32,000 bases of DNA from Dehalococcoidia bacterium (GTDB lineage Bacteria > Chloroflexota > Dehalococcoidia > Lucifugimonadales > Lucifugimonadaceae), in NCBI GenBank assembly GCA_963664995.2, contig OY761846.1:1775771-1807770 (forward strand), given 5' to 3'. The stretch's first letter is position 1, and each line of letters begins with the position of its first letter. This document shows, piece by piece, positions 1-18,979 of the stretch. Made by a program: the position numbers and the translations under genes. The notes below the pieces were generated by a model. It searched no databases. It had not been told where the DNA came from and was given only the letters and a program-made list of their open reading frames with translations.

Positions 1-3000
1 TCACGCCCAATGACGCCTCCGTTGGAACGGGTAGATCGGGATCGCTATTCGTCGTCGCGACTCGCCAGCGAACAGCCCCTCAAACGATATCGGCACACCC
101 GCCTCATACGCTCGAGCCAAACCATCAACGAAACTTACTCCTCCCTCAACTGCCGGATTCAAGTCGTACTCGGAACTCTCTCCGATTCCGATGAGCAAGT
201 ATTCCGATTCTTCAGAGAGCGACTCAACGATCTTGACGAGACCGTCTTGTGTCGATTGCCCGCCTCGTTCCGCTATTCTCAGTCCGTCCTCCAAGCTGAC
301 CTCACCAGCAGCCTCCGCCGCTGCAAGTTCGCCGATCCCACGCGCCAACACCACATTTGGGGTCACCCCTACGTTAGTCCAAAGCGCGGTTAGAGCACAT
401 TGGAACGCGTAAGTAGCTTGTCGCACCAATTCTATGTCCGTAGCGATGGCATCCAACCCAGCGCGCCCTAGCATGACTTCTAAAAGACGCACGCCTTGCT
501 CTGTCCCGAGTATTTCGTCGCATCGATCAATTACGGACCTAAATGCCGGTTCACTCTCGTACAGTTCGCGAATTACTTTGGGCTTATAGCCGATTTCGTC
601 TGCGTATACGAACGCCACCTTTCCAGCCGCTGCTGGCTCTGGAGTTTCGGGATCAGCGTCGATATGCGAGATTACACTCAGGCCGTCTCTCAACGAATCG
701 ATGTCGCGGAACACTACGCCGCGTCGGTGCCCGAAATGGCTACGTCCAACGCTCGCCGTCCATGTCATATCGGACAGCAACTCGTCGGTAACAACATGAT
801 CGTCCGATGGTCGTGCTTCCAACCAACCCAAATACTCTTTTGCTAAATCTCGGAGTGCCGGTTCCGATTTGCCGGACAGAGGCAACAGTCGTGACTGACG
901 CGGCACATACCCGTTTTCGCTCTCTGTGAGATCTGCTTCGACATCCAGTGAGGTTCCAGAGATTGACCGCTTCAAACCCGCTGGGGCGATATAGCCGTTA
1001 CTAGCGTATCTGTCATCTGCGCCGACATCGTAACCACTCAACACGATGTGTGCGTTGGCACCAGACATCCCGAATCCGCTAATTGCCGCTAATGGTTCTC
1101 GACCATTCGAGTTTGGCCACTCTGTATTTTTAGTCGGGATCTCTATCGCGAGCCGATCCCAATCGACGTGCGAGTTCGGTTCACTAAAGTTCAGTTGTTT
1201 GGGAACAACCCCGTTCTTCATTGACAGCACGACCTTGATGATGCTCGCAACGCCGGCAGCTTTCTCAGTGTGTCCGACATTGGCCTTGACAGAACCGACG
1301 TAAAGGGGATGATCTTGCGCCCTTCCTTCGCCGTATACCGCGCCTGCCGCGTGCAACTCGATTGGATCGCCCAGCTGAGAGGCTCCGCCGTGCGCTTCAT
1401 AGTAGTCAACGTCACTAGGCTCTACCCCAGCCGCGTTGAGGGCATCCCGCATCACATTTTGCTGTGCCGACCCGTTGGGTACGGTCAAACCTGCGCTCGC
1501 ACCGTTCTGATTTACTGCTGATCCGAGTATCACACCCCAGATTCGGTCGCCATCGGCCTGGGCATCCCGCAATCGCTTCAGCACCAGCATTCCGCAACCT
1601 TCGCCGCGCACAAATCCATCTGCTCCAGCATCGAATGGTCGGCTCTCTCCGCTTGACGATAGCATCCCTAGATCTGTCATGTATTCGCTTATAGGTGGAG
1701 AAAGAACTGCATTCACACCACCTGCGAGAGCCATGTCTACTTCCTCAGTTTCCAATGAGCGTACCGCTTGATGGACAGCGGCATGTGATGCCGCGCACAC
1801 TAGGTCAACTGGTACCGCTGGTCCCTCCAATCCGAGCGCAAACGTCACCCTACCGACCGCCATACTGGAAGTAGTGCCCAAATAGTTGTCCTGAATTCCA
1901 TTCGCCGCTAGAACGTCTCGATACTCGCTTGCGCCGACACCCACGTACACACCCGTGCGACTACCTTTAAGACCGTCCGGATCAATGCCCGCGTCCTCAA
2001 GCGCATGCCAAGTCGTCTCTAGCATCATCCGCTGTTGCGGATCCATCGTGCGCGCCTCGATCGGTGAAATCCTGAAGAATCTCGAGTCGAAACTATCGAT
2101 CTCATCCACGAACGCACCTTTTCTCAAAACCTCCTGTTCAGCGTACGGGTCACCGATCGTCCCACTCCATGACCCGTTGTCCCGTCGTCCATCCGTGATT
2201 GCGTCCGAACCAGACTTTAAGAGGTGCCAAAACTCTCCGATGTCCTTTGCCTTCGGGAAACGACACGCCATACCCACGATCGCTACACCGTCTATGTCCG
2301 TTTCCGAATCGCTCGGGGCTGCCAGCTCTGGTACTTCCTGTTCAGCGACAACGGATGCAGGAATAGCGAACACTTGCTTCTGTTCCTCAACATCTCCTAT
2401 CTCATCAGAGAGATGATGCGCGAGGTCTGCGACACTGGGATAATCAAAGACGATGGTGTTCGATGCGACGTATTGCCCGGCGAATGCGCGGTTTAGTCGA
2501 TTCCTGAATTCGACGGCCATCAGCGAGTCCATACCGAGATCAAAGAATCCGGTGGTCGGGGAAGGCGCTGTTTGCAGACGCATGACGGCTTGGAGTTCTT
2601 CTTGCAGGAATGAAACCATTAAGTCTTCCCGCTCCGAGTCGGACGCGCTCCGTATTTTGGACAGCACATCTTCTGACGATTTGGCAGTATCGGCATCTTC
2701 GTCACGGGTAGACGACAGTAGCTCCTCTACCAGAGACGGGGGTTCTTCTACGGCTGCTTCAAAAACTGACCAATCGGTGGACATTACAACTGAGGTGGTG
2801 TTGTCTCGGCACGTGATTTGCTCAAACGCCTTCATTCCTTGTTCGGGCGTGAACCAACGTCCGCCGAGTGCTGCCCTGCGATTTTCGATACGCTCACGTT
2901 GTTCGGCGGCTTCTCCGATCTCGGACCATGCCCCCCATGCGATCGCCTGCCCCGGCAGACCCAATGAGCGGCGATGGGCGGCGAGTTGGTCGAGAAAAGC

Positions 3001-6000
3001 GTTGGCTGCCGCGTGGTTGGATTGTCCCGGATTACCCATTACTCCAACCCGGCTGGAGAAAAGAACGAACATATCGAGGTCTTGATTCAAAGTCGCTCGA
3101 TGCAGATGCCACGCGCCGATGATTTTGGGCCATAGCACACGCTCAAAACTCTCCCAGGTCTGGTTGGTAAGAGCGGCATCCGATAGTACCCCGACACTGT
3201 GAATGACACCTGCTAGGGGTGGAAACTTCGCATCCATTCGCTCTAACATGTCGTCGATCGCCGATGTGTCTGTCATGTCCGCCAGCTCAACCTCGATCTT
3301 CACTCCTCGGCGTCGCATTGCTGCAATCGCGTCTTCTGCCTCAGGGTCAGGATCACGACGACCGTTAAGTATGATCGTTCCGGCGCCGTGTTCGGCGAGC
3401 CATTCAGCGACCGCGATGCCGATCCCACCAAGCCCGCCGGTTACCAAGTACGTTCGATCATGCCTCAGACGGCCGGTTGAAAGCGGTTGTGGCGTAAGGA
3501 CGATCTTTCCGACGTGGCGTGCCGATCGCATGAAACTCAATGCTGCTCCAGCCTCAGCCATCGGCCATCTGCTGTGGATCAATGGTTTCAGTTCTTGTTT
3601 TGCGATTCGCTCCATGATGTCTCGCAAGACTTCCCCTACTCGCTCTGGGTCGGTCTTTTTGAGTACGTCGAGTTCCAAGATGTCGTATGAGACATCTGGA
3701 CGGATGTCTGCCATTTCCTCTTCGGTCAGGATGTCGCGCCGCGCCAACTCGACGAATCGTCCGCCATGCGCGAGGCATGAGAGGCTGGCATCAATGAAAC
3801 CTTCGCTAGTTAGGCTGTTCAACACGACATCAATACCTTCGCCACCGGTTGCTTCAAGGATTTGCTGTCCGAAATCGGTGGTTCGGCTGTCGAAGAGATG
3901 TTTGACGCCCAACGACTTTAGATACTGCCGCTTGGGTGCGCTCGCCGTGGCAAACACCTCGGCGCCTGCTGCCTGTGCAAGCTGGATGGCCGCCAGTCCG
4001 ACACCGCCAGCACCGGCGTGGATCAGGACGCGGTCGCCCGGCTCCAATCCTGAATATCGATAGGAGAGTTCAGCGGACACGAACGCGCTGGGGATAGTGG
4101 CGAGCGCAGAAGCTGAAATCCCTTCTGGCGCTGGCGCTACGAGCTCTTGGTGTGTAATCATCTGCGGACCAAAGGCCCCGAATCCGAGTCCGACGACGCG
4201 ATCTCCTACTGCTACTTTCGAAACCTCTGAACCGATTTCGAGAACGTGTCCACACAACTCTCTGCCCAGATTTCCCTCTTCGATGAATCCGAGCGAACGG
4301 AAAACATCCCAGAAGTTGAGCCCTGTGGCTTCAACCGCAACGAGAACCTCACTTGGTTCCAACGACGGATGAGGAAGTTGCTTTATCGAAGGTCTGTCAA
4401 ATACGCCGTCGGGGTCTGGCGCTAGCACCCAGTTGTTGTGATCGGGAAAAGTCAGTCGTTCGACAGCAGCGTCTGGTCTGACCAAACGTGCGCCCATTCG
4501 ACGTCCAGAGCGATATGCGATATGGTTCTCCTGGTCTGGGAACATCAACTCATCGACAAGTTTTGTTAATGTGCCCGAACCGTTGGGGTCTAAGTCGATC
4601 ATCCTAGGCTGGAAGTGTGATGCCTCTAATGCCATGACCTTACCGAGTCCCCATAGAATCGACCCGGAAAGTTCCCCTGAATTTTCACGCTCCAACACCT
4701 GCCCGCCTTCTGTCAAGAACCATACTCCCTTAGCGGGTGTCACATCCGAGTCAGCAATGCCTTGCACGAGCGTCAGCGCGGTCTGTCCGATATTTTTCAA
4801 ATCTTGTGCAATTTCATCCGTGGACGCGCCTGGTCCGTGCCCGTCTAGTGCCAAAAGATGCACGACACCGTTTACGGGGACATCCTGGGGTAAATCCTCA
4901 ATCAATGATCGCCATGACTCGCGACTAGCAAAATCGACCACCGTAGTGGTTACGTTTGAGTTCGACGCAATGGTCCGACTGTTTTCGGTAACTTCGTTGC
5001 GCGCAAGGATGACGGTCTGGTTGCGTTCGGCTAACGCTTCTGCCAGTTGTTGTCCGACATCTCCGTCATCAGCCGTCAAGATCCACGCACCTGCTGGTTC
5101 TGTGACCTTTGCTGGACCTTGTGCGACGATCACGCCCTTGTCTAGCATTTCGTGAGTGAATGAATCGTCAACGCCCAGCACTTCGAACGCCTCAAATCCT
5201 GTATCACTGAGTGCTTGACGCCACACATCAGGTCCTGCCAAAGCGTGATGGGGCCTATACTCGTCGGCGAATCGCCACCATCCGTCCAATTGACCGAAGG
5301 TCAAGTCCATCCAACCCAGTCCGCGAAGGTTTTCCAACGCGATCAAATGTCCGTCCGGCGCAAGCAACGTCAGGCAATGACCCAACGTTTCTTCGAGATA
5401 GCGCGTTGCATGTAGCACGTTCGACGCGATCAAGATGTCGTAGCCATGCGAAGCGAATCCTTGCGCTATCGGGTCCTCTTCGATGTCCAACGGACGGTAT
5501 TGGATGCTCCCGTTCGCATCACCGAATCTAGCCTCTGCTTCGGCAAAGAAACCTGCCGAGATGTCGGTGTAAATGTATTCGAAGCGTCCTTCGGGCAGTT
5601 CGGGCAATACCGACGCGGTTGCGGAGCCTGTACCTGCGCCGATTTCAAGGACACGCAAACGTCGGTCGTCCGGCAACTCTGAAACTAGTTTCGCAACGGC
5701 GTCGCCCAACATTCGGTTTGCGGCGCGCGCTACTGGTGCTTTGAGGTACAGGTCAGCAGCGGTAGGTTCGCCACTGCTGAACAGTAGAGTCAATGGATCA
5801 GCTTCTCCGCGCAGGACATCGGCAAGCGCGCCTCCGGAACGTCGGAACAGTCCAATCTCTGTCAATCCGTGCGAATACTTCTCTGCCATCCGCACATGAA
5901 ACTCTTCCGGATCGTCTCTCAATTCGACCGGCAACGCGTCGTCTTCTCCCAACGCGACAACAAAGTCATCGCCTCGCTCTTCCATTACACCCGAATTGGC

Positions 6001-9000
6001 GAGCATTTCGAATAGCCTGCGGAAGAGGCGTGCATGCTCCTCGTTTATGCCTAATCGTTGTCTAAGGTCTTCGGGATTGACGACTTCACCGGTTTGACGT
6101 TTCCAACCAAGTTTTTCAAGCGTCCGCAGCGCGTAGGCCCTTGACCACCGCTCCATGTCGGCAAGAAGGCTGTTTCGACTTTCGGGATCAACATCCGCGT
6201 CGGATAGGTAACCAGCGAATAAAGACAACCCCTTGGCCACTTCGTTCGGACTTGGCAAGAAATCGGCGGGCAATGTGGCGTTTTCAAGTTCACGTTCTCG
6301 CCAAACTACCTCATATAGGAGATCGTCAGTGCCCTCAATTGCAGAAAGCAGAGCTGCCTTTGTTGCGCGCTTAACGGTGTATCCGATGAAACCGCCGATT
6401 TGAACACCGCTTGGATCGTAGATTCTTAGTTCTCCACTCAAAACCTCCGGTTGAACGTCTGGATCAGCATCCTGCTCAGACTGATTCATAATCACATGGC
6501 AAAACACTCGGTCTGGTAGGCGTCTGTTCAGCCAGAAACGTTCCCATCCGAAAGGAAGATAGGTGGCTTCACCGGGATCCCCGGTCATGTTGCGGGCTAT
6601 ACCGACGACTTGGAAACAACCGTCCATTATGAGCGGGTGAACATCGAGTTCGTTGCGTCCGAGGGTCTCGGGCAGTATCACTTCTGCCAATGCTTGACCG
6701 GGGCCTGACCATGCCATGCCTAGCGTCCGGAAGAAGGGACCGAGATCGATACCGGTGTCCACCTTCGCGCGATAGTAATCTTGCACGTCTGCGGGCGTGA
6801 GTTGTGCTGCTAGTGCTTCTAGATCGATTCGCCCCCCTCCCCGCGTCTCTGGAGCGGTCCCGCCTGATGAAACCTTGCACTCCACATGCAAGGTCCATTC
6901 ACTCTCATTTCCTTTGCTGTAAATCTGAACGTCATGAGATCCCGACTGCTCAGACGCGTTTAATGCGACTTGCATCGTCGCGCCCTGTTGGTCAGCATCA
7001 GAATCTGAATCAGTTTTGGAAAAAACCAACGGGTTGTGGAGCTGCATGTCATCAACGAAAGTGATGCTACTTCCGCCAACTTCCTCAAGTGTTGCCGAGG
7101 TAGCCATCGCTCCATACAGCGCGCCGGGTGCTACCAATCGGCCGAAGACGCGGTGATCAACCATCCAAACAGGGTCCGACGGGAAGACCTCAGTTTCGAA
7201 AGTGACCTCACCCCGTGCCGATTCGTGCCTAACGCCAAGCAAAGGATGACCAACTATTTGGCGTCTCGGCTTGTCTTGCCTCACCCAATGCCGCTCTCGC
7301 TGAAACGGGTAGCTGGGCACTGAGATGCGACGACGTTTCTCTCCTGCGAATAATCCGTCGAATCCGATGTCCAACCCGGATTGGTATCCTTCGACGACGG
7401 CATCAATGAAGCTTGTTTCAGGTTCTGAAGTCGAACGATCACGAGGCGGTCGTCGAAGGCTTGCAATCTCAGCAGGAGTTTCGGCCCCCGGCCATGCCAA
7501 CGTTGCCATTGGACCCAGTACCGCATGGGGACCGATCTCAATTATGAGGTCCACATCGAGGTCAGCCATTGCCTGAACTCCGCTGGCGAATGCCACCGCC
7601 TCGCGCGCGTGGCGCTTCCAATAGGTGCCGTCTAATGCCATATCGGAATCGACCTGTCGACCTGTCACGTTGCTGATCACGGTCAAATCAGGAGACCCGA
7701 TCTTCACGCTTTGCAAGAATGATTCCAACTCGCCCAAAGCGGGTTCGACCAGAGCACTATGAAATGCACGTTTCGTATTTAATCGGCGCGCTCGGGTACC
7801 CTTTGATTCATAAAAGTCGACGATTTTTTCAATGTCTGCGACGGTACCGCTAACGACCTGATGTGCGCCGTTATAGCCTGCGATGCTCAATCCGGGACCT
7901 TCGGTCTTAGCATTCAGTTCTTCAATCGTTGACGTTACATCTTGGGGAGTCGCGAATATCGCTGCCATCGTCCCGGGATCGGTATTGGACAGCAGCGTAC
8001 CCCTTACGGCGGCGAAGCGCATCCCGTCTTCAATACTGAACACACCGGCGGTTTGGGCGGCTGCGATCTCGCCCACGCTATGACCGAGCACTACACTAGG
8101 ACGGATTCCAACGCTTGCCCATAGAGCAGACAACGCTGACTGCAATGCATAGAGGGCCGGCTGCTCCCAAGCGGTATCTCCTAGGTCTTCCTTTGCACCG
8201 TTGCGTCCCCACATCACGTCGAGCAGAGATTCGCCCCGTTCGCGTTGAAAAACCATCTCGCAACGGTCCATGACGGCCTTCACCACTGGCTCACTCTCGT
8301 AGAGAGACTGCCCCATACCTACCCATTGGCTTCCCTGCCCGGTGTATAGGAACGCGACCTTGCTAGCCAATTGCGGCTCGATGCTTGTCTCATCTTGGGA
8401 TAGGGCATCCAGCTTCTCGCGCAATGATTCGGCATCTTCAAACGCGATACCGGATCGGCGATCGAATTGACTCCTCCCAACTCCAGCTGTCCACGCCATA
8501 TCCGACAACAACTCATGCGCGGTGTCACGATCATGAATTAACTCGTTGGAATGTTCGTCGAGCCACGAAACGTATCTTTTGGCAAGGTCCCGGACCGCGC
8601 CTTCAGACTTTCCTGACAGAGGCAAGAAACGCTTCTGGCGTCTGCTCGAAGGCTTTTCCGTCAGAACAAGATTGGTTAAATGCGTGGGCAATGAAACGCC
8701 GATAGATTGTATAGAACCAGAAGTACCGTTTTGGTAAGCCACCAATTCGCCCTGGTCGCGATGTTCCTGCAACACGACATGAGCATTGGTTCCGGAAATT
8801 CCGAACGAGTTGATCCCCGCCAACCGAGGACGACCATCGCAACTTGGCCACTCCATCATGTCGGTCGTTACCCGTATAGGGAGATTCTCCCAGTCGATGT
8901 TGGGGTCTGGATTATGGAAGTTCAGATGTTTGGGAATTACTCCCCGTTTCACAGCAAGGGCGGCTTTTATGAGCCCGGCAATTCCCGCGGCCGATTCCAG

Positions 9001-10128
9001 GTGTCCGATATTGGTCTTGACGGAACCGATCAACAATGGCGCGTCGGTATTTCGGCCTGGTCCGTAAACGTTTGAGACAGCGTCGATCTCAATGGGGTCT
9101 CCGACCGCTGTTCCGGTACCGTGAGCTTCTAGATAATCGACCTCGGATGCTGGAACACCCGCGTCTGCGTGTGCCGCTTGGATCAACTTCTCCATAGCTG
9201 GCGCGTGTGGCACAGTCAATCCGGCACTGGCACCGCCATGGTTGACCGCCGCACCTAGAATGACTGCCCATATCGGGTCGCCATCGGCTAGTGCCTCGTT
9301 CATTCGTTTGAGAACGACGACACCGCACCCTTCACCGCGTACGTAACCGTCGGCAGATGCATCGAAAGTCTTGCACTGCCCTTCTGGGGATAACATCATG
9401 GATTCGGCGCGAAGTTCATAGACACGCGGATTAAGGATTGCCTGAACACCGCCTGCAATTGCGAGGTCGGCCTTACCCTGTTGCAAGTCTGCGACAGCAT
9501 CATGTACAGCAACTAGCGCGGATGCACACGCAGCATCGACTGCCTTTGCCGGCCCATTGAGTCCGAGAACGAATGAGACGCGGCCGGCGGTTCCGTTCAG
9601 GTTGGTACCGCTGAGCGCGTAGAGGCTTCCGGCGGCTTCCGTAGGGCGAGTCGAATCGAGAACCAGCATCCGGTATTCATCGTTGCTGATACCGCTGTAA
9701 ACGCCGGTGCGACTACCCTTAAGCGTCTCAGGATCGATGCCGGCATCTTCGAGCGCCAACCAACTCATTTCCAGCATCATGCGTTGCTGGGGGTCTAGCA
9801 GATCAGCTTCCACTGGCGAAATTCGGAAGAACCCAGCGTCGAACAGGTCAATGTCATCTACAAATGCACCGTATCGACACGCGTCTTGTGGCACCTGCTG
9901 ATCACTGAAAATCTGACCCATGCGCCCCTCTCCGGGACCGGCGTCGCTCTCGGTGACGGCGTTCCTACCTTCTTTCAGCAAGTCCCAAAACGCTTCCAAA
10001 TCACCAGCACCAGGGAACCGACATGCCATGCCGACGATTGCTATCGGCTCGTGTGTCGAAGGCGCATTTCCGTCGGATGACGATTTGCTGGTCTGACCAT
10101 AGGAGAGGGTTGGAGATGTCTGAGTCAT
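1..10128 (-). CDS. Type I polyketide synthase: fully reducing, C-methylating module plus terminal KS and vestigial AT (KS-AT-DH-cMT-psiKR-ER-KR-ACP-KS-AT0)
   Basis: A 3375-aa ORF with ATG at 10128 and TGA on bases 1-3. Domains were placed by hand-counted motifs (aa / approx nt). KS1 27-452 / 8773-10050: VDAAC201AS, EAH336GTGT, NIGH376. AT1 591-890 / 7459-8358: GQGSQW, GHS684VG, RAFHS787-791, malonyl-type. Post-AT linker YPFQRERHW. DH 960-1250 / 6379-7251: H992RVFGRLVAP, LGPFF, D1169GCFQ. cMT 1410-1625 / 5254-5901: LEIGAGTGS, SNVLHAT. ER 1895-2212 / 3493-4446: HAGAGGVGLAA. KR 2225-2405 / 2914-3456: TGGLGGIG, K2335, S2358. ACP 2500-2575 / 2404-2631: LGMDS2535L. KS2 2613-3030 / 1039-2292: C2778, H2913, H2953. 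AT remnant 3170-3375 / 4-621. Confidence 0.95.
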   Translation of the reverse strand: MTQTSPTLSYGQTSKSSSDGNAPSTHEPIAIVGMACRFPGAGDLEAFWDLLKEGRNAVTESDAGPGEGRMGQIFSDQQVPQDACRYGAFVDDIDLFDAGFFRISPVEADLLDPQQRMMLEMSWLALEDAGIDPETLKGSRTGVYSGISNDEYRMLVLDSTRPTEAAGSLYALSGTNLNGTAGRVSFVLGLNGPAKAVDAACASALVAVHDAVADLQQGKADLAIAGGVQAILNPRVYELRAESMMLSPEGQCKTFDASADGYVRGEGCGVVVLKRMNEALADGDPIWAVILGAAVNHGGASAGLTVPHAPAMEKLIQAAHADAGVPASEVDYLEAHGTGTAVGDPIEIDAVSNVYGPGRNTDAPLLIGSVKTNIGHLESAAGIAGLIKAALAVKRGVIPKHLNFHNPDPNIDWENLPIRVTTDMMEWPSCDGRPRLAGINSFGISGTNAHVVLQEHRDQGELVAYQNGTSGSIQSIGVSLPTHLTNLVLTEKPSSRRQKRFLPLSGKSEGAVRDLAKRYVSWLDEHSNELIHDRDTAHELLSDMAWTAGVGRSQFDRRSGIAFEDAESLREKLDALSQDETSIEPQLASKVAFLYTGQGSQWVGMGQSLYESEPVVKAVMDRCEMVFQRERGESLLDVMWGRNGAKEDLGDTAWEQPALYALQSALSALWASVGIRPSVVLGHSVGEIAAAQTAGVFSIEDGMRFAAVRGTLLSNTDPGTMAAIFATPQDVTSTIEELNAKTEGPGLSIAGYNGAHQVVSGTVADIEKIVDFYESKGTRARRLNTKRAFHSALVEPALGELESFLQSVKIGSPDLTVISNVTGRQVDSDMALDGTYWKRHAREAVAFASGVQAMADLDVDLIIEIGPHAVLGPMATLAWPGAETPAEIASLRRPPRDRSTSEPETSFIDAVVEGYQSGLDIGFDGLFAGEKRRRISVPSYPFQRERHWVRQDKPRRQIVGHPLLGVRHESARGEVTFETEVFPSDPVWMVDHRVFGRLVAPGALYGAMATSATLEEVGGSSITFVDDMQLHNPLVFSKTDSDSDADQQGATMQVALNASEQSGSHDVQIYSKGNESEWTLHVECKVSSGGTAPETRGGGRIDLEALAAQLTPADVQDYYRAKVDTGIDLGPFFRTLGMAWSGPGQALAEVILPETLGRNELDVHPLIMDGCFQVVGIARNMTGDPGEATYLPFGWERFWLNRRLPDRVFCHVIMNQSEQDADPDVQPEVLSGELRIYDPSGVQIGGFIGYTVKRATKAALLSAIEGTDDLLYEVVWRERELENATLPADFLPSPNEVAKGLSLFAGYLSDADVDPESRNSLLADMERWSRAYALRTLEKLGWKRQTGEVVNPEDLRQRLGINEEHARLFRRLFEMLANSGVMEERGDDFVVALGEDDALPVELRDDPEEFHVRMAEKYSHGLTEIGLFRRSGGALADVLRGEADPLTLLFSSGEPTAADLYLKAPVARAANRMLGDAVAKLVSELPDDRRLRVLEIGAGTGSATASVLPELPEGRFEYIYTDISAGFFAEAEARFGDANGSIQYRPLDIEEDPIAQGFASHGYDILIASNVLHATRYLEETLGHCLTLLAPDGHLIALENLRGLGWMDLTFGQLDGWWRFADEYRPHHALAGPDVWRQALSDTGFEAFEVLGVDDSFTHEMLDKGVIVAQGPAKVTEPAGAWILTADDGDVGQQLAEALAERNQTVILARNEVTENSRTIASNSNVTTTVVDFASRESWRSLIEDLPQDVPVNGVVHLLALDGHGPGASTDEIAQDLKNIGQTALTLVQGIADSDVTPAKGVWFLTEGGQVLERENSGELSGSILWGLGKVMALEASHFQPRMIDLDPNGSGTLTKLVDELMFPDQENHIAYRSGRRMGARLVRPDAAVERLTFPDHNNWVLAPDPDGVFDRPSIKQLPHPSLEPSEVLVAVEATGLNFWDVFRSLGFIEEGNLGRELCGHVLEIGSEVSKVAVGDRVVGLGFGAFGPQMITHQELVAPAPEGISASALATIPSAFVSAELSYRYSGLEPGDRVLIHAGAGGVGLAAIQLAQAAGAEVFATASAPKRQYLKSLGVKHLFDSRTTDFGQQILEATGGEGIDVVLNSLTSEGFIDASLSCLAHGGRFVELARRDILTEEEMADIRPDVSYDILELDVLKKTDPERVGEVLRDIMERIAKQELKPLIHSRWPMAEAGAALSFMRSARHVGKIVLTPQPLSTGRLRHDRTYLVTGGLGGIGIAVAEWLAEHGAGTIILNGRRDPDPEAEDAIAAMRRRGVKIEVELADMTDTSAIDDMLERMDAKFPPLAGVIHSVGVLSDAALTNQTWESFERVLWPKIIGAWHLHRATLNQDLDMFVLFSSRVGVMGNPGQSNHAAANAFLDQLAAHRRSLGLPGQAIAWGAWSEIGEAAEQRERIENRRAALGGRWFTPEQGMKAFEQITCRDNTTSVVMSTDWSVFEAAVEEPPSLVEELLSSTRDEDADTAKSSEDVLSKIRSASDSEREDLMVSFLQEELQAVMRLQTAPSPTTGFFDLGMDSLMAVEFRNRLNRAFAGQYVASNTIVFDYPSVADLAHHLSDEIGDVEEQKQVFAIPASVVAEQEVPELAAPSDSETDIDGVAIVGMACRFPKAKDIGEFWHLLKSGSDAITDGRRDNGSWSGTIGDPYAEQEVLRKGAFVDEIDSFDSRFFRISPIEARTMDPQQRMMLETTWHALEDAGIDPDGLKGSRTGVYVGVGASEYRDVLAANGIQDNYLGTTSSMAVGRVTFALGLEGPAVPVDLVCAASHAAVHQAVRSLETEEVDMALAGGVNAVLSPPISEYMTDLGMLSSSGESRPFDAGADGFVRGEGCGMLVLKRLRDAQADGDRIWGVILGSAVNQNGASAGLTVPNGSAQQNVMRDALNAAGVEPSDVDYYEAHGGASQLGDPIELHAAGAVYGEGRAQDHPLYVGSVKANVGHTEKAAGVASIIKVVLSMKNGVVPKQLNFSEPNSHVDWDRLAIEIPTKNTEWPNSNGREPLAAISGFGMSGANAHIVLSGYDVGADDRYASNGYIAPAGLKRSISGTSLDVEADLTESENGYVPRQSRLLPLSGKSEPALRDLAKEYLGWLEARPSDDHVVTDELLSDMTWTASVGRSHFGHRRGVVFRDIDSLRDGLSVISHIDADPETPEPAAAGKVAFVYADEIGYKPKVIRELYESEPAFRSVIDRCDEILGTEQGVRLLEVMLGRAGLDAIATDIELVRQATYAFQCALTALWTNVGVTPNVVLARGIGELAAAEAAGEVSLEDGLRIAERGGQSTQDGLVKIVESLSEESEYLLIGIGESSEYDLNPAVEGGVSFVDGLARAYEAGVPISFEGLFAGESRRRIAIPIYPFQRRRHWA

Positions 10129-10370
10129 TGGGTTCGTAACTCTCTAGCCTTGGACACTGTGCTAAACGCTAGATTCTGATCTAATCCAGCCGCCTTATCA
10201 AGCACGTACTGATATTGGAAATGGTAACTAAAAGTTCCCGATACTGCGTATCATACCCTTACCATTACTACTGCGTCAAACGAGATGGTCTTGGTGGCGG
10301 AATCGGTTCATGGATACGGCTCTCTTTTTGGATTGCATCGTAATTTCCCCGCAAGATTGTTGCTTAGCGT

Positions 10371-10376
10371 TATAAT
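10371..10376 (+). promoter_or_regulatory. Candidate -10 box (perfect TATAAT) in the divergent PKS / RdhA-like intergenic region
   Basis: TATAAT lies 38 nt upstream of the ATG at 10414. I found no convincing TTGACA-like -35 at 16-18 bp spacing, so this is weak. Confidence 0.2.
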
Positions 10377-10413
10377 CCGCTTCAATACTTGCGCGCAAGT
10401 CAAGGATATCGAG

Positions 10414-11661
10414 ATGAGTAAGTCAGTACACCACGTCGTAACTCGCCCCGGACGGAGGCATGGCGACGCTGAAACGTCAATACCGGTCGCCGAAGATTTG
10501 GTGACGGTGCCAGGGTCTCCAACAATCGATGGTGATGTTAGCTATTACAGCCGAGAATATCCCGTCGAAAGCCAGACCGTTGAGAAGTCGGCAGATCGCG
10601 AATGGGGTTGGACAGTCTACATTAAAGAGGTTTACGACTACCGCAAGAAGCATGACGAGGTGAGTGAACCTCTGATCGAGGCGGCCGCGGTATCTGGCGA
10701 TCATGACCCCACGACAGAGCCGGAAGCGGGGCGAGATGTCACGGAAGAGGTCCGCACAAAGGCTCGCGAGTTGGGTTTCGGCGAGGTTGGATTCACAAGG
10801 TATGACCGACGTTACACCTATCAGAGCAAAAAGCCGTGGGCGAAGTTCAACCACGCGATCTGCTTGGCGTTGGAGCAGGACTACTACCAGACCCAGACCA
10901 TCCCTAGCCTTGAGGCAGAATTCGCACACTTCGGCACCTACGAGATCGCCGGTGAACTCGCCCTCAAACTCGCCGAACACATCCGGTCCCTCGGATACCA
11001 CGCACAAGTCCACAGCCCGAACGACAACAGCGGCGTGTTTATTCCGCTTTTCGTGAACGCGGGATTGGGGCAGCTAGGGGCTAATGGTCAACTACTATCG
11101 CCTCATTTCGGGTCGCGGGCTCGCCTGATGATGGTCACCACCGATGCGCCAGTTACATACGACGAACCGGTTGATTACGGCATCAACAAGTTTTGCGAAC
11201 AGTGTCAGGTTTGTGTCGTGCGTTGCCCTGCCAGAGCATTGCTTCGTGAAAAGGTTTGGTACCGTGGCGTGCAGAAGAACAAGCTTGTATATGACCGATG
11301 CCGCCCGATAATGGTCACTTACGAGGGATGTGCGGTATGCATGAAGGTTTGCCCCATTCAGCGTTACGGGATGAAGCCGGTGATGGAGCATTACATCGAG
11401 ACTGGTGACATCTTAGGCAAAGGCACGCCGAACCTCGAAGGATACGAGCTTCGCGACAAGGGTTACTTCGGTCCGGGGGAGCTGCCTCACTTTGACCGTG
11501 AGACTTTTGAGTTTCCACATGGCACTAAAGAGGAGTGGTTGTTCGAGAAGTTCAAGGAAAAGCTAGAGGACAACGGTGCACCAGAGGCTGAGGAAGCTGT
11601 GGAGTTTGCAGATGAGTTGACGCGTCTAGTGAAGGCTGGCGTGTCGCGGACGGACGAGTAG
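10414..11661 (+). CDS. Reductive dehalogenase / epoxyqueuosine reductase (RdhA/QueG) superfamily Fe-S protein, cytoplasmic type
   Basis: The C-terminal half has the superfamily pattern AGLGQLGANGQLLSPHFGSRARLMMVTTDAPVTYDEPVDYGINKFC. This is followed by two ferredoxin-type motifs, CEQCQVCVVRCP (CxxCxxCxxxCP) and CRPIMVTYEGCAVCMKVCP (Cx9CxxCxxxCP). The upstream segment ELGFGEVGFTRYD...AICLALEQDY...IRSLGYHAQ also fits. There is no hydrophobic Tat/Sec leader. I moved the start from the ORF-track 10285 to ATG 10414, which has AAGGA about 10 nt upstream. Confidence 0.65.
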   Translation: MSKSVHHVVTRPGRRHGDAETSIPVAEDLVTVPGSPTIDGDVSYYSREYPVESQTVEKSADREWGWTVYIKEVYDYRKKHDEVSEPLIEAAAVSGDHDPTTEPEAGRDVTEEVRTKARELGFGEVGFTRYDRRYTYQSKKPWAKFNHAICLALEQDYYQTQTIPSLEAEFAHFGTYEIAGELALKLAEHIRSLGYHAQVHSPNDNSGVFIPLFVNAGLGQLGANGQLLSPHFGSRARLMMVTTDAPVTYDEPVDYGINKFCEQCQVCVVRCPARALLREKVWYRGVQKNKLVYDRCRPIMVTYEGCAVCMKVCPIQRYGMKPVMEHYIETGDILGKGTPNLEGYELRDKGYFGPGELPHFDRETFEFPHGTKEEWLFEKFKEKLEDNGAPEAEEAVEFADELTRLVKAGVSRTDE

Positions 11662-11901: not shown

Positions 11902-12126
11902 ATTACGATATTTGATGATTCGTTGTTGGCTTATAGATGCCCCGGTCAGCGTGCCTCGATCCAGCCCCCTGCCACGAACTCGGAGCGCACTCGTGCCTCA
12001 TTGACCTGCCAGTGTCCGACAATGGTTTGCAACGGGCGCGGTCGGATGGTTACGCCTAGACATTAGATTTGAGTTCTGCTATGGTGTTTGCAATCACTCG
12101 GCGGCAAGCCAATCTCGGAGGATAGG

Positions 12127-13158
12127 ATGTCGGTCAAGCTCTCTGGTCTTTTGAAAGACGCGCAACAGAATGCCGATGTTGCTGACACTCTTAGCAAGTA
12201 CGAGAATGGCTTCGAGAAATCCAAATTCGGGAAGATTGGGGGAGATGATGAAACGAGCGAGTTCAAGGATGTCAACAACCACTACTATGACTTGGTTACG
12301 GATTTCTACGAATTTGGCTGGGGAAGGTCATTTCATTTTGCCCCACGCGTACCTGGCGAGAGTTTCGCTGCATCGCTAGCTCGCCATGAACACTACATCG
12401 CGCACATGCTCGGCCTGGGTCCAGGGATGGTGGCGGCTGACTTAGGTAGCGGTGTTGGCGGGCCTATGGTGGAGATAGCTCGCTTTTCCGGTGCTCGGAT
12501 CGTGGGAATAAACAGCAACGAGTACCAGATCGAGCGTGCTCGAAAACTCAGCGAAGGGGCAGGGCTGTCTCATCTGACTAATTTCTTGCACTGCGACTTC
12601 CATAATGTGGATGCTCCGGACGACTCGTTTGACGCGGCATTCTCGATCGAGGCGACGTGCTGTTCGTCGGACAAAGCCAGAATATACAGCGAGGTCTATC
12701 GCCTTCTTAAACCGGGCGCTTGTTTTGCTGGTTACGAATACTGCTTGACGGATCGGTACGACGCGAGTGATCCTTACCATGTGAAGATCAAGTCCGACAT
12801 CGAGCTAGGTGGTGGTCTGCCCGATATCGCCTATAGTCACGAAATTGACGAGATTCTTAGAAGCGTGGGCTTTGAGGTATTGGAAACGCGAGACCTAGCG
12901 GAACAATCGGGTCCGTCGGTGCCTTGGTATTTGCCATTGGCCGGATCAGGACTATCATTTGCGAGCTTCCGCAGCTCATCGGTCGGGCGGTTGGTCACGC
13001 AGAGCTCATTGCGAGTGCTAGAAACACTGCGGATAGTGCCTCGAGGAACGGTGCGCGTTTCGAAAACGTTGAATCTTGGCGCGGATGCGATGGTCGAGTC
13101 GGGCCGGCTGGGCATCTTTTCGCCGATGTACTTCGTCCACGTCCGCAAACCGCTGTAA
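12127..13158 (+). CDS. Sterol 24-C-methyltransferase (ERG6/SMT) family SAM-dependent olefin C-methyltransferase homologue
   Basis: It is collinear with the SMT signature regions as I recall them from yeast ERG6 and plant SMTs. YYDLVTDFYEFGWGRSFHF matches region I (YEYGWGSSFHF). ADLGSGVGGP is the SAM motif. SIEATCCSS matches IEATCHAP. RLLKPGACFAGYEY..TDRYD, IELGGGLP and PWYLPL also align. The C-terminal GIFSPMYFVHVRKP matches the Sterol_MT_C ending. The start is set at ATG 12127, with GGAGGA 5 nt upstream; the ORF-track TTG at 12088 is less likely. Confidence 0.85.
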   Translation: MSVKLSGLLKDAQQNADVADTLSKYENGFEKSKFGKIGGDDETSEFKDVNNHYYDLVTDFYEFGWGRSFHFAPRVPGESFAASLARHEHYIAHMLGLGPGMVAADLGSGVGGPMVEIARFSGARIVGINSNEYQIERARKLSEGAGLSHLTNFLHCDFHNVDAPDDSFDAAFSIEATCCSSDKARIYSEVYRLLKPGACFAGYEYCLTDRYDASDPYHVKIKSDIELGGGLPDIAYSHEIDEILRSVGFEVLETRDLAEQSGPSVPWYLPLAGSGLSFASFRSSSVGRLVTQSSLRVLETLRIVPRGTVRVSKTLNLGADAMVESGRLGIFSPMYFVHVRKPL

Positions 13159-13325: not shown

Positions 13326-14765
13326 ATGAAAACAACGCAACACGACCTCCAGATGACACCGGATCAGATGCTGGATCTCGCACACATGGCGGCGGAGCTT
13401 CTGGTGGAACGCGTAGAGAATATGTCGGAAGGAGACGCTTGGGACGGTGAGTTCCGCGAGGGGCTAGAGGACTTGCTGATGGAGGACCCGCCTGAGGCAG
13501 GTCGACCTGCGAAAGAAGTCCTGGACCGAGTATCTCGCGAGATTCTGCCCTACGCTGCACGGCTCGATCACCCTCGATTCTTTGGATTCATCCCATCTTC
13601 ACCCACCTGGCCAGGCGTAATCGCCGATTTCATAACTGCCGGGTTCAACATCAATGCGGTTACTTGGCTTACTGCAAGTGGACCGAGTCAAGTTGAGTTG
13701 GTCGTCACCGAATGGTTCCGGCGCTGGATCGGCTATCCAGAAAGTGCCGGAGGGCTATTCACAAGCGGGGGGTCAGTTGCCTGCATCGATGCCTTCGTCG
13801 CGGCGCGCGAGGCAGCCGGCAACCCAGAGCGCGCTACGGTCTACATGAGCGACCAGAGTCACATTGCGCTGAACCGAGCCGCAATGATCATAGGTGTTCG
13901 ACCCGAGTGCGTCCGCGTGATCCCGAGCGACGAGAACTTTCGCTTAGACATGGCAGCCCTTGAGCGCACCATGACCGACGACCGCGCCGCGGGCTTTAAT
14001 CCCATGATCGTGAATGCAAATGCAGGAACAGGCGTAACTGGTGCCATTGATCCACTTCAAGCCATGGCCGATTACTGCGAGTCGGAAGATATATGGCTAC
14101 ACGTAGACGGGGCGTATGGTGGATTCGCAGTCGCGACCGAGAAGGGAAAAAGGTTGTTGCAAGGAATCGAACGCGCCGATTCTGTAGGGCTCGACGCACA
14201 CAAATGGTTCTTCCAACCCTACGAAGCCGGTTGCCTGATGGTCAAAGACGCCGACACCCTCGAGAAGCCATTCGGGATTAGACCAGACATTCTCCAAGAC
14301 ACAATATGGGGCGCAAACCACCCGAACTTCGGTGATCGGGGACTCCAGATCAGCCGCTCATTCAGGGCGTTGAAGGTCTGGATGTCCGTCCAAACCTTTG
14401 GCATGGCCGCGTTCCGTCGCGCCATTTCGAACGGAATGGAACTGGCACTCCAGGCACAGGAATATGTCCAAGCCAGTCAGGTTCTCGAAATGATGAGCCC
14501 CACATCGCTGGGAATCGTGTGCTTCAGGGTGAATCCCGAGGACACCAAGCTCGACGAGCAAGTTCTGGAGAAGATAAACAGGATAGTGCTCGCTCGCGTC
14601 TTCTGGGAAGAGCCGGCACTCTTCTCGTCGGCGCTTACTAAGGGGACATTCTCTCTCAGAATCTGCATCCTCAACCACACGACGGCTTGGGAAGATGTGC
14701 GCGACACCCTAGAAGCCATTGAACGATTCGGCAGGGAGGCGCTAGCTACAGAGGCTAACGCTTGA
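13326..14765 (+). CDS. Group II pyridoxal-phosphate-dependent decarboxylase (aromatic-L-amino-acid / tyrosine decarboxylase-like)
   Basis: HPRFFGFIPSSPTWPGVIADFITAGFN is the family N-terminal signature. SGGSVACIDAF also fits. DAHKWFFQPYEAGCLMV contains the PLP-lysine DxHKW motif. Size is 479 aa. Confidence 0.85.
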   Translation: MKTTQHDLQMTPDQMLDLAHMAAELLVERVENMSEGDAWDGEFREGLEDLLMEDPPEAGRPAKEVLDRVSREILPYAARLDHPRFFGFIPSSPTWPGVIADFITAGFNINAVTWLTASGPSQVELVVTEWFRRWIGYPESAGGLFTSGGSVACIDAFVAAREAAGNPERATVYMSDQSHIALNRAAMIIGVRPECVRVIPSDENFRLDMAALERTMTDDRAAGFNPMIVNANAGTGVTGAIDPLQAMADYCESEDIWLHVDGAYGGFAVATEKGKRLLQGIERADSVGLDAHKWFFQPYEAGCLMVKDADTLEKPFGIRPDILQDTIWGANHPNFGDRGLQISRSFRALKVWMSVQTFGMAAFRRAISNGMELALQAQEYVQASQVLEMMSPTSLGIVCFRVNPEDTKLDEQVLEKINRIVLARVFWEEPALFSSALTKGTFSLRICILNHTTAWEDVRDTLEAIERFGREALATEANA

Positions 14766-14774
14766 ATTGCCGCG

Positions 14775-15092
14775 CTACTGATCTCTCTCAACGTCGAGGT
14801 TCGAGCATATCCTAGCGATCGTCTTGGCCTGCGCGAGGTCTGGCGCATGGTTTTCGGACACGCCAGCGAACCCGGAGAGCATCGAGGCTGCATCGCCATG
14901 CAATCTAGCTACGACGACTGGCTGACCCAAGATAACTTGCCAAATAAGGGCAGCTGCAGTGTCGTCAAGCTATACGGTCTTGCTCAAATCCAATATGACA
15001 ACTTCATTAGCCGCTCTATCACTCCGCAAGACCCTCGCAATTTCGCGGGCTGATGCCACGGATATCGTATCGGGCAATATAACGAGTCCCAC
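14775..15092 (-). pseudogene. STAS-domain (anti-sigma-factor-antagonist-like) gene remnant with in-frame TAG
   Basis: Hand translation of the minus strand from GTG at 15092 gives VGLVILPDTISVASAREIARVLRSDRAANEVVILDLSKTV. A TAG follows at 14970-14972. The frame continues as LDDTAAALIWQVILGQPVVVARLHGDAASMLSGFAGVSENHAPDLAQAKTIARICSNLDVERDQ and ends at TAG 14775-14777. The pattern vv.LDLs.v.f.D..a...l...g..vv.a.l......l...G matches SpoIIAA/STAS topology. The stop falls where the conserved hydrophobic residue before the D(S/D) position would be. A further stop lies just upstream at 15099-15101 and there is no ATG. Confidence 0.3.
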
Positions 15093-15137
15093 TCGTGACT
15101 AGTAGAGGGCCTTGCAAAGCTCATACGAGAGTAAGGG

Positions 15138-15165
15138 TTGTAAATTGCGCGATTTTCGGTATCAT
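15138..15165 (+). promoter_or_regulatory. Candidate sigma70-type promoter for the lipoprotein array (TTGTAA-16 nt-TATCAT)
   Basis: The hexamers lie at 15138-15143 and 15160-15165, 20-30 nt upstream of the L1 start candidates. This is a pattern match only. Confidence 0.2.
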
Positions 15166-15185
15166 TCACAGAGATTGAGGGCAGT

Positions 15186-15791
15186 TTGCTATCGATGCTT
15201 GCAGCGTTCCATAAAAAGCTCGGATTCCTCGCGACGATAATGATGGTCGTCGCTTTTTGCGTTGCGTGGGTGTCGTTGGCGTGCGGCAGTGCTGACGGGG
15301 GCGATGGTAATGACTCGGAGTTGGAGTTTCAGCAAGTGATGGATATCGGGACAACTTTTTCGCCTGACCATCTCGATGGCATCGGTTTCAAGAAATCTCG
15401 TAGCTATGATCTCGAAGGATTGCCCGGAGCCAGCGAAGCAATATTCGGTTTCTGGCGCATCGCTTCAGGAGACCCGATCGATTACGAGGTGCGTTTCTAT
15501 GCTAGTCACTCAGACGCGGTGGAGTTGGGAACTGAACTTGCAGAAGAAGGATCGGGTGCTGATGCCGTTCTCGACGCGGATGATGCGAAATACAAAGAAG
15601 GTGTCAAAGACCGTCGGATGATCGTGGGATCCGGCATCGGCGGCGGGGCGCGTAGCGGCACGGGGCCGCGATATGGTTCGTATGCGATCTACGGCAATGT
15701 GGTAATGCTCTGCGGAGGTGCCGCTGGCGAGCAGGCACTTGATCGGTGCGAAGAGCTTGCGAATGCTTTGAAAGGAACCGAGGGCGAGTGA
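15186..15791 (+). CDS. Lipoprotein, unrecognised tandem-paralogue family, member L1 (2-Cys type)
   Basis: Signal peptide ending VSLAC|GSADGG, followed by an acidic G/D/S tether. Family core: YEVRFYASH, AEEGSGADAVLDADDAKYKEGVKDRR, YGSYAIYGNVVMLC-x11-C. The start is ambiguous: TTG 15186 has GAGGG 4 nt upstream, and ATG 15195 is the alternative. Confidence 0.8.
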   Translation: MLSMLAAFHKKLGFLATIMMVVAFCVAWVSLACGSADGGDGNDSELEFQQVMDIGTTFSPDHLDGIGFKKSRSYDLEGLPGASEAIFGFWRIASGDPIDYEVRFYASHSDAVELGTELAEEGSGADAVLDADDAKYKEGVKDRRMIVGSGIGGGARSGTGPRYGSYAIYGNVVMLCGGAAGEQALDRCEELANALKGTEGE

Positions 15792-16342
15792 TGGGCAAGG
15801 TGAGTTGGATGATTTTCGTATGTCTGCTAGGCATCGTCATTGTCGGTTGCGGTGGCACAACTAACGACGCCTCCGAAGATTCTGAGGATTCGAGACAAGA
15901 TGCAGAATCCCGAGTTTTAGACAGAGAGCAGATTATATCGTCCGATGACCTAGTCTCTCTGGGAATGAAATCGGGTAAGACTTACGATGTCTCGACACTG
16001 CAGGGCGGAGTCGAAGCCGGGTTGCTTTATTGGCGAGTCAACGATGTCGCGGTGGAGTACGAAGCGCGGTTCTATGCTTCGCATGATGATGCGGTAGCAC
16101 TCGGCACTGCGCCAGCGGAAGAAGGAAGCGGAGAAGACGCGATCATCGATGAGGATGTGGCGGTATATAAGGAAGGGATCCGAGACCGCAGGAAGGTTTT
16201 CAAATATCCAAATTCAGTGCTGAAACCAAAATACGGCGCGTACGCGATCTACGGAAACATGGTCGTTCTATGTGAGGGAAAAGACGATGCAGAGGGGTGG
16301 AGTAGATGTTCAGCGCTGACCGACGCTCTCGATAATCGATAA
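15791..16342 (+). CDS. Lipoprotein, same family, member L2 (2-Cys type)
   Basis: ATG 15791 overlaps the L1 TGA by 1 nt (TGATG). Signal peptide MGKVSWMIFVCLLGIVIVGC|GG. Core: YEARFYASH, AEEGSGEDAIIDEDVAVYKEGIRDRR, YGAYAIYGNMVVLCEG-x-C. The ORF-track start 15746 lies inside L1 and is rejected. Confidence 0.85.
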   Translation: MGKVSWMIFVCLLGIVIVGCGGTTNDASEDSEDSRQDAESRVLDREQIISSDDLVSLGMKSGKTYDVSTLQGGVEAGLLYWRVNDVAVEYEARFYASHDDAVALGTAPAEEGSGEDAIIDEDVAVYKEGIRDRRKVFKYPNSVLKPKYGAYAIYGNMVVLCEGKDDAEGWSRCSALTDALDNR

Positions 16343-16360
16343 AGGTCGGAACACGTCGGC

Positions 16361-16927
16361 ATGAAATTGATCGGAGTATTCAAAGGTCTCATTGCGCTTT
16401 CATTGCTTTTCATCGTGTTGGCGATGGCTTGCGGATCAAACGATGGAGGCGGAGGCGGTGCTGGTGTCTCAGACTATTCAGAGGTTGAGTCCGATACTAG
16501 GATATTCGACCGTGAGGCTACGCTCTCAGTTGACGATCTGCTCTCTCTCGGCTTGAAATCTGGCAAGAAGTACGACGTTGAAGACCTTCCCGGAGCCGTC
16601 GCCAACCGCGTCTTCTTCTGGCGTATAGACGATATCTCCGTCCAATACGAAGCCCGGTTCTACGAATCCCACGCCGCCGCAATAGAATTCGGACCTGGCC
16701 TTGCTGAAGAAGGCAGCGGTGAAGGCGCGATCCTCGACGCCGATGATGCGGTATACAAAGAAGGCGTCAGAGACCGCCGAACAGTGTTCGACTTCCGGGG
16801 TACGCCAAGACCGAGATACGGAACCTATGCCATCTACGCAAACATGGTCGTACTCTGCGAAGGCCGCGACGATGCCGAAGCTTGGGACCGTTGCACCGCG
16901 TTAATTGAAGCGCTCGACAATCGATGA
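16361..16927 (+). CDS. Lipoprotein, same family, member L3 (2-Cys type)
   Basis: Signal peptide MKLIGVFKGLIALSLLFIVLAMAC|GS, followed by a poly-Gly/acidic tether. The core is roughly 60 percent identical to L2 by eye: YEARFYESH, AEEGSGEGAILDADDAVYKEGVRDRR, YGTYAIYANMVVLCEG. Confidence 0.85.
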   Translation: MKLIGVFKGLIALSLLFIVLAMACGSNDGGGGGAGVSDYSEVESDTRIFDREATLSVDDLLSLGLKSGKKYDVEDLPGAVANRVFFWRIDDISVQYEARFYESHAAAIEFGPGLAEEGSGEGAILDADDAVYKEGVRDRRTVFDFRGTPRPRYGTYAIYANMVVLCEGRDDAEAWDRCTALIEALDNR

Positions 16928-18265: not shown

Positions 18266-18293
18266 TGGTCGGTGTCAACCGCTGAAAACGGCG

Positions 18294-18953: not shown

Positions 18954-18979
18954 CGAGATTCAATCAGTTAGAGGTAACA

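Follow-up and report, generated by a model that had tools for sequence, protein, structure and literature searches.

The window analysed here is a stretch of 32,000 nucleotides from a Dehalococcoidia bacterium (assembly GCA_963664995.2, contig OY761846.1, positions 1,775,771 to 1,807,770), and its first 10,128 nt are occupied by the gene of a large polyketide synthase (PKS). This gene, on the minus strand (nt 1–10128), was a single unbroken open reading frame (ORF) of 3375 codons, which started with an ATG at nt 10128 and ended with a stop codon on bases 1–3 of the window. Pfam matches and 30 collinear full-length homologues sharing 54% to 70% identity marked it as a complete supA-like gene, and it is probable that the product is an intact type I PKS of the SupA type ("sponge symbiont ubiquitous"), working through a second ketosynthase and a discrete carrier protein as set out below. 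An exact look-up of the 3375-residue protein found no record.

The protein began with a ketosynthase, KS1 (aa 27–405; nt 8914–10050, minus strand as for all domains of this gene), which matched PF00109 and PF02801 in two stretches with a family E-value of 1e-158 and possessed C201, H336 and H376 together with DPQQR and HGTGT motifs. It was followed by an acyltransferase, AT1 (aa 593–871; nt 7516–8352; PF00698), with GHSVGE (S684) and RAFHS, predicted to be malonyl-type by the established HAFH/YASH motif rule, and by a dehydratase (DH; aa 961–1260; nt 6349–7248; PF21089 and PF14765) with H961 in HPLLG, a GPFF motif and D1169 in DGCFQ. The C-methyltransferase (cMT; aa 1477–1647; nt 5188–5700; PF08242 and PF13489) had an S-adenosylmethionine motif, EIGAGTG, and the expected His and Glu in NVLHAT and LIALEN. 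Between the cMT and the enoylreductase lay aa 1648–1924 (nt 4357–5187), presumed to be a structural pseudo-ketoreductase (psiKR) from its position, which is that found in fatty acid synthase (FAS) and PKS reducing loops; this identity is plausible, the segment giving in Pfam sub-threshold matches of the Rossmann type alone (Epimerase, E = 0.003). The enoylreductase (ER; aa 1925–2211; nt 3496–4356; PF08240, PF00107 and PF13602) contained the NADPH motif HAGAGGVG, and the ketoreductase (KR; aa 2226–2403; nt 2920–3453; PF08659) contained TGGLGGIG, K2335, S2359, N2376 and the LSD motif of B-type enzymes, with His2372 in place of the catalytic Tyr. An acyl carrier protein, ACP1 (aa 2508–2573; nt 2410–2607; PF00550), with S2535 in LGMDSL, closed the module. 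Loading AT or ACP, CoA ligase, GNAT and thioesterase (TE) domains were not found by Pfam within the 3375-residue ORF. Thus, much of what the original prediction had said of this protein was borne out: a KS from about aa 27 with none of these loading functions ahead of it, intact DH, cMT, ER and ACP motifs, a malonyl-type AT1 and a stop codon on the first three bases. The full DH-cMT-psiKR-ER-KR loop that it described was recovered by Pfam for DH, cMT, ER and KR, and its psiKR stays at the plausible level given above.

The final stretch of about 760 residues consisted of a complete second KS followed by a KS-AT linker and the remnant of an AT. KS2 (aa 2613–3031; nt 1036–2292) was matched over its full length, covering profile positions 4–252 of 252 and 2–118 of 119, and possessed C2778, H2913 and H2953, with HGGAS where HGTGT was expected. 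Behind it, nt 4–1035 encoded the linker, a truncated AT without the active-site serine (AT0, occupying the second AT position, AT2) and a conserved post-AT linker, ...PIYPFQRRRHWA, with matches to PF22621 and PF00698. PF22621, a CurL-like linker domain, occurred twice in the PKS. AT0 matched PF00698 at profile positions 17–113 of 319 alone, ARGIGE replacing GHSxGE, and AT2 spanned 194 residues in the window protein versus 348 for AT1.

The 799 C-terminal residues of the PKS served as query in a search for homologues among species-representative genomes, which yielded 39 close loci, with ordinary actinomycete PKSs coming next at 35% to 40% identity. The close loci were in metagenome-assembled genomes (MAGs) of Dehalococcoidia/SAR202, Dadabacteria, Thermodesulfobacteriota, Gammaproteobacteria (including 'Ca. 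Porisulfidus'), Nitrospirales and Vicinamibacteria. Their bin names suggest that these MAGs come from sponges, and one sponge genome note names Porisulfidus. At 30 of the 39 loci a single ORF of 3281–3540 codons represented the homologue, collinear over its whole length with the window protein, and these 30 spanned MAGs of five phyla, from the first five of the groups just named. An alignment of the window protein with them (n = 31; the shorter homologue L034, 3102 aa, was left out) showed that the KS1 triad and motifs, the AT1 GHSxG, the DH Asp, the cMT GxGxG, the ER and KR NADPH motifs and the ACP DSL were kept throughout, and the DH His in 28 of the 31 proteins. The second AT1 motif was xAFHS or AFHC in 23 and GYHS in 8.

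The two halves of the C-terminal tail differed sharply in this alignment. The Cys-His-His triad of KS2 was kept in 31/31, whereas the active-site Ser of AT2 was absent from 31/31; across the family AT2 measured 194–282 residues versus about 350 for AT1, and the parts retained were its N-terminal portion and the post-AT linker (…FEGLFAGESRRRI.LP.YPFQRRRHW). Neighbour joining was applied to 138 KS domains, none of them from FAS, highly reducing PKS (HR-PKS) or polyunsaturated fatty acid (PUFA) synthases; in the resulting tree KS1 of the window grouped with the KS1s of 33 related loci, and the KS1 clade was sister to the KS2 clade, both together excluding 70 KSs of actinomycete and other ordinary modular PKS loci. 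Since KS1 and KS2 form sister clades, the KS2 triad is kept and the AT2 serine is lost, the tail appears to stem from an old duplication of KS1-AT1 within the gene, after which the AT decayed and the KS stayed catalytic.

Among solved structures, the KS1-AT1 region was most similar to CurL (4MZ0; 640 bits), followed by DEBS (about 500 bits), the mycocerosic acid synthase MAS (453 bits), LovB (381 bits) and animal FAS (300 bits), and the KS2 region was also nearest to CurL (508 bits). By these scores both KSs are closest to bacterial cis-AT modular PKSs of the CurL kind, not to FAS or HR-PKS. The window PKS shared no more than 70% protein identity with the species-representative genomes searched and 86% DNA identity with one metagenome contig, L081, over nt 1270–10061 of the window. 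Over nt 1–1270, which encode the end of KS2 and AT0, the corresponding part of that contig (nt 14364–15829) shared only about 40% identity at the protein level. Furthermore, module 1 was nearest to its counterparts in L005 and L001, whereas KS2 was equally near to those in L003, L004 and L013. The drop in identity in the tail and the different nearest relatives of module 1 and KS2 suggest that the gene is a mosaic that may have arisen by recombination among sup alleles.

The KR differed from most of its kind at one position. His2372 (codon at nt 3013–3015, minus strand) aligned on the catalytic Tyr of the solved KRs of MAS and AmphB, the MAS KR (9D2Y) being the nearest solved relative at 168 bits. 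His occupied this position in 37 of 40 family KRs versus none of 53 KRs from unrelated PKS loci, all 53 of which had Tyr; within the family, Tyr was present in L033, which has the same full-length architecture, and in the shorter L034. A library-wide search was evaluated for its best 150 representatives (P0121–P0270), which contained 348 KR motifs. Among these, His was found in 17, and the KR lay in a cMT-containing module in 11 of the 17 His-KRs versus 1 of 328 Tyr-KRs; five multimodular proteins had a His-KR in the cMT module and a Tyr-KR in another module. This association could be due to functional coupling of the His-KR with the cMT or to an inherited DH-cMT-(ER)-KR cassette. A literature search on the HAAAN/YAAAN motif found nothing, and any claim to a new feature is tempered by a review of modular PKSs in which the active-site Tyr of KRs is said to be "sometimes replaced by histidine" (PMC7327777).

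The genes flanking the PKS in the related loci pointed to a probable partner for KS2. A discrete gene for an ACP, about 80–95 codons long, adjoined the PKS gene in 36 of 40 loci, across phyla, usually 30–150 bp downstream of the PKS stop codon (nt 12665–12910 in L003, 12747–13013 in L005, 12681–12956 in L026, 16224–16376 in L081, and 32 other loci). The predicted proteins scored 36–44 bits against the Pfam PP-binding family (cutoff 20.8), and the phosphopantetheine Ser was conserved in nearly all copies, the exceptions being frameshifted fragments, of which L017 has an example. The gene does not appear in ORF lists restricted to 100 residues or more, and a hidden Markov model (HMM) of the in-line ACP also missed it, giving E-values of about 1; the recurring weak matches were checked by Pfam and a dedicated HMM was then used. 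The discrete ACP was missing from L001 (none within 10 kb), L035 (where the contig ends) and L036 (another architecture). In L034 the PKS tail and the ACP seemed to be fused, a reading that was rejected, this being a long open frame in which the ACP has its own Met start.

Over the 40 loci, an alpha/beta-hydrolase was present in about 30, a phosphopantetheinyl transferase (PPTase) in about 26 and a permease in about 14. In L003 and L004, for example, the PKS was followed by a PPTase of the Sfp/HetI type, an alpha/beta-hydrolase and, on the opposite strand, a permease of the xanthine/uracil family, and in L081 an ACP fragment and then a PPTase lay downstream. The hydrolases shared HG, GxFHSxS and GADP motifs and a C-terminal His, which make a Ser-Asp-His triad plausible; against solved structures they gave weak generic alpha/beta-hydrolase matches alone. 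The 30 collinear full-length relatives had no further PKS gene in the 10 kb downstream, and none was found upstream within the window, the exception to this pattern being L036 with its different architecture. A loading enzyme conserved near the PKS was likewise not found in the relatives, the upstream genes of other lineages being FtsK, GyrB and permeases. By analogy, the window's own ACP gene probably lies beyond base 1 of the window, and its PPTase and hydrolase genes may lie there as well. In L001, the PKS was followed at nt 14285–16501 by a cupin, a 246-residue ORF and an MMPL-family transporter, with no ACP, PPTase or hydrolase nearby. MMPL proteins are a lipid-export family that accompanies mycobacterial lipid PKSs.

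The intact KS2 triad in 31/31 proteins together with the discrete ACP gene flanking the PKS in 36/40 loci argues for a second, non-reducing extension step carried out by KS2. The system would then consist of one reducing module, a split minimal second module made up of KS2 and the free-standing ACP, and probably a trans-acting release hydrolase. On this point the original prediction of a lone single module did not hold, and three of its other statements held in part. The resemblance to FAS and HR-PKS extended to the order of the domains and not to the sequences, both KSs being nearest to CurL. The absence of a TE applied in cis, the conserved hydrolase with its plausible triad being encoded in about 30 of the 40 related loci. 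The saturated alpha-methyl-branched product fitted the domains of module 1, and the methyl group would no longer be alpha once KS2 had extended the chain. The KS phylogeny that had been proposed as a check placed KS1 outside the ordinary modular KSs in the tree described above, and the two findings that would have spoken for a different system, a loading protein encoded nearby and a long multimodular assembly line, were not made, there being no conserved loading gene and no further PKS genes in the related loci. The likeness to the small Sup-type PKSs of sponge consortia, which the original prediction had pointed out, gained support from the architecture, the primer motifs, the taxonomic spread and the permease.

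From the parts list, whose composition and conservation were observed directly, we infer the following chemistry. KS1, which has no loading module, would take its primer, a fatty acyl thioester, straight from primary metabolism, and AT1 would put malonate on ACP1. Condensation, alpha-C-methylation by the cMT and full reduction by the B-type His-KR, the DH and the ER would give a 2-methylacyl-ACP1. The chain would then move to KS2, the paralogue of KS1 with intact catalytic residues whose AT is a decayed scaffold, and be condensed there with malonyl on the free-standing ACP; because AT2 is dead, this ACP would be loaded in trans, by AT1 or FabD. The resulting 3-oxo-4-methylacyl-ACP may be taken over by the type II FAS enzymes, a route that would put the methyl group in mid-chain and match the Sup hypothesis, or it may be released or transferred by the hydrolase. 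A cluster-encoded PPTase of the Sfp type would activate both ACPs. It is possible that module 1 iterates before the hand-over to KS2. The fuller picture, in which Sup PKSs are two-KS, two-ACP devices that supply either a 4-methyl-3-oxoacyl thioester to type II FAS or, through the hydrolase, a beta-keto acid or methyl ketone, and in which the His-KR is a specialised partner of the cMT, is offered tentatively and is rather unlikely to hold in all its parts. If it were true and unreported for Sup, the two-KS device and the pairing of His-KR with cMT would redirect the search for the Sup product.

Several points weigh against the identification and the mechanism. The window ends at the stop codon of the PKS gene, and the ACP, PPTase and hydrolase are taken from its relatives. 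One close relative, L001 (69% identity), has the cupin and the MMPL transporter downstream and no ACP within 10 kb. The link to Sup is drawn from the architecture, the spread over taxa, the primer motifs and the SupE permease rather than from comparison with a SupA sequence, and a search with the MT-psiKR segment recovered unnamed fragments of no more than 1075 residues and no protein named SupA. The KR is without the canonical Tyr, and if His cannot substitute for it the reductive loop would not run. No experimental product of any Sup PKS was found in the literature accessible.

Three rival explanations were weighed, ranked here in the order iterative single module, long assembly line and dead KR. 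According to the first, the protein is a lone iterative module of the FAS/HR-PKS or MAS kind making saturated chains with several methyl branches, and KS2-AT0 is a vestige or a dimerisation scaffold. The protein has a single complete reducing module and only one ACP in line, the KR has MAS as its nearest solved relative (168 bits), AT2 is clearly decayed and L001 has no discrete ACP nearby, all as this explanation would have it. A vestigial KS, however, is not expected to retain both its triad and a private carrier protein, and the KS2 triad was intact in all 31 proteins at 54% to 70% identity while the adjacent AT had lost its Ser in every one, with a dedicated ACP gene adjoining the PKS in 36/40 loci across phyla. 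We therefore regard the lone iterative module as unlikely.

The second rival makes the protein one subunit of a longer multimodular cis-AT line, with KS2-AT0 as the first half of a split module continued on a downstream PKS. As in split modules, a KS-AT-type didomain lacking an ACP forms the end of the protein; both KSs are closest to modular cis-AT PKSs (CurL and DEBS), and some representatives with related His-KR/cMT modules are multimodular, such as P0121 (5547 aa) and P0125. However, the gene stops at one common position in the 30 collinear homologues and in several fragmented ones, and behind it lie either the ACP of about 90 residues, the PPTase and the hydrolase or else housekeeping genes, with no PKS within 10 kb, and the nearest relative, L081, shows an ACP and then a PPTase, which makes a continued line extremely unlikely.

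The third, that His for Tyr has left the KR dead so that module 1 stops at the 2-methyl-3-oxo stage and a beta-keto or ketone-type lipid results, draws on the position of His2372, which falls on the catalytic Tyr when the KR is aligned with those of MAS and AmphB, on the family-wide occurrence of His (37/40 KRs) and on the reported inactivity of Tyr-to-His mutants of classical short-chain dehydrogenases/reductases. It is very unlikely, since the replacement is on record in PKS modules (PMC7327777), the KR NADPH motif, Lys, Ser and Asn and the catalytic residues of DH and ER, which would be useless behind a dead KR, are conserved, and Tyr is present in L033, of the same full-length architecture, and in L034.

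The rest of the window contained genes that appeared to be independent neighbours. Divergent from the PKS, nt 10285–11661 (plus strand) encoded an Fe-S protein resembling reductive dehalogenases (TIGR02486, E = 3e-32, under the cutoff of that family), with the catabolic NpRdhA (4RAS; E = 8.5e-29) as the nearest solved structure. L003, L004 and L013, which are Dehalococcoidia loci, and also L081 had a counterpart in the equivalent place that shared 84% to 87% identity with it. Its candidacy as a cluster member was rejected, the gene being absent from the other 35 loci; since the PKS is only about 57% identical in L003, L004 and L013, it is regarded as a lineage-specific neighbour. The high identity of this neighbour to its Dehalococcoidia counterparts suggests a host of that class, most likely a sponge symbiont. 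A sterol methyltransferase (SMT) homologue (nt 12088–13158, plus strand; Pfam Sterol_MT_C, 80.6 bits versus a cutoff of 21.7) lay in an apparently bacterial context, probably that of a Dehalococcoidia sponge symbiont; other sterol genes were not found in the 32-kb window, and the homologue itself was absent from L081. Bacterial SMTs from sponge metagenomes are known to alkylate sterol side chains (PMC10070321). Next came a pyridoxal phosphate (PLP)-dependent decarboxylase (nt 13326–14765, plus strand), whose closest match was L-2,4-diaminobutyrate decarboxylase (NF052646, E = 9e-61, under the cutoff) and which sat between the SMT homologue and an array of nine paralogous DUF6810 genes at nt 15186–19564 (plus strand) and 20486–21543 (minus strand). 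Seven of these were arranged head to tail, and the two on the other strand matched the N-terminal half of the domain only; DUF6810 genes were also present on L081. An ATP-binding cassette (ABC) transporter of the Opp/Dpp type was encoded elsewhere in the window. The SMT homologue, the PLP decarboxylase, the DUF6810 paralogues and the ABC transporter were not conserved with the PKS in the other loci.

The Sup PKSs were reportedly described by Fieseler et al. in 2007 and Hochmuth et al. in 2010, and published SupA clones are pSW1H8, pAPKS18 and pAE27P20; the products of supB to supD are reportedly a carrier protein, a PPTase and a hydrolase. They are unusually small mono-modular PKSs, proposed makers of fatty acids with mid-chain branches, which dominate the KS amplicons of high-microbial-abundance sponges, and supA is recovered from sponges with degenerate primers aimed at DPQQR and HGTGT (PMC4245539, PMC3908369). 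SUP gene-cluster families occur independently of bacterial taxonomy in sponge MAGs of Chloroflexota, Proteobacteria, Acidobacteriota and Spirochaetota (PMC9426513), and "SupE … permease" is listed in a table for clone pAPKS18 (PMC3908369). Because of their abundance, Sup genes hamper the search for drug-type PKSs in such sponge surveys, and they are a candidate source of the mid-chain-branched fatty acids that serve as lipid markers of sponges and their symbionts. To this family the window contributes one intact Sup-type allele, probably of a Dehalococcoidia symbiont, and no new kind of system; the comparison of 40 loci defines a minimal conserved unit of PKS, discrete ACP, PPTase and hydrolase and singles out the KS2 Cys, the Ser of the discrete ACP (ACP2) and the KR His as the residues of first interest for function.

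Compared with known systems, the window PKS shared with animal FAS and fungal HR-PKS the order of the reducing loop, DH, (psi)MT or cMT, psiKR, ER, KR and ACP. Affinity in sequence was far lower, with LovB at 381 and FAS at 300 bits for KS1-AT1; moreover, the window PKS had no TE of the FAS type and lay in a bacterial operon context, and those enzymes have no second KS. The order DH-cMT-ER-KR also occurs in bacterial modules of the CurJ/JamJ type, and among cyanobacterial cMT-containing cis-AT modules CurL (4MZ0) gave the top similarity for both KS-AT regions. Modules of this type, however, are parts of long colinear lines that have docking domains and close with a TE, whereas the window PKS was a stand-alone enzyme of 1.5 modules with a discrete ACP.

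With MAS and MAS-like mycobacterial PKSs it shared the lack of a loading module (a fatty acyl thioester would presumably prime the KS), the fully reducing loop KS-AT-DH-ER-KR-ACP for methyl-branched lipids and the closest solved KR, and an MMPL transporter adjoined the homologue in L001. MAS, in contrast, uses methylmalonyl-CoA for its branches and lacks a cMT, a second KS and a private free-standing ACP, whereas the window PKS had a malonyl-type AT1 and an in-line cMT, and its KS1 scored lower against MAS (453 bits) than against CurL (640 bits); it is thus not a member of that group. SwfA, the sponge widespread FAS-like PKS, is likewise mono-modular, associated with sponge symbionts and without a loading module (PMC3908369). 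It has the architecture KS-AT-DH-ER-KR-ACP without a cMT, DP(I/V)QR and HATGT in the KS and GHSSGE in the AT, and is followed in its cluster by swfB (reductase and sulfotransferase) and swfC (radical SAM) (PMC3908369). Unlike it, the window PKS had DPQQR, HGTGT and GHSVGE together with an in-line cMT and falls outside Swf.

Compared with SupA by the features described for it, the window PKS showed nothing that spoke against membership. Both are small stand-alone type I PKSs with one fully reducing C-methylating module (KS-AT-DH-MT-ER-KR-ACP) and a KS clade apart from the ordinary modular KSs. KS1 of the window had the primer motifs as MDPQQRMM and EAHGTGT, and KS2, with HGGAS, would not be amplified. 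Relatives occur across several bacterial phyla, as described for the SUP families (PMC9426513), a permease is found in the relatives' clusters as SupE is in that of pAPKS18, and methyl-branched fatty acids are the proposed class of product. These findings indicate that the PKS is a further member of the already described Sup family, ordinary apart from its second condensing domain.

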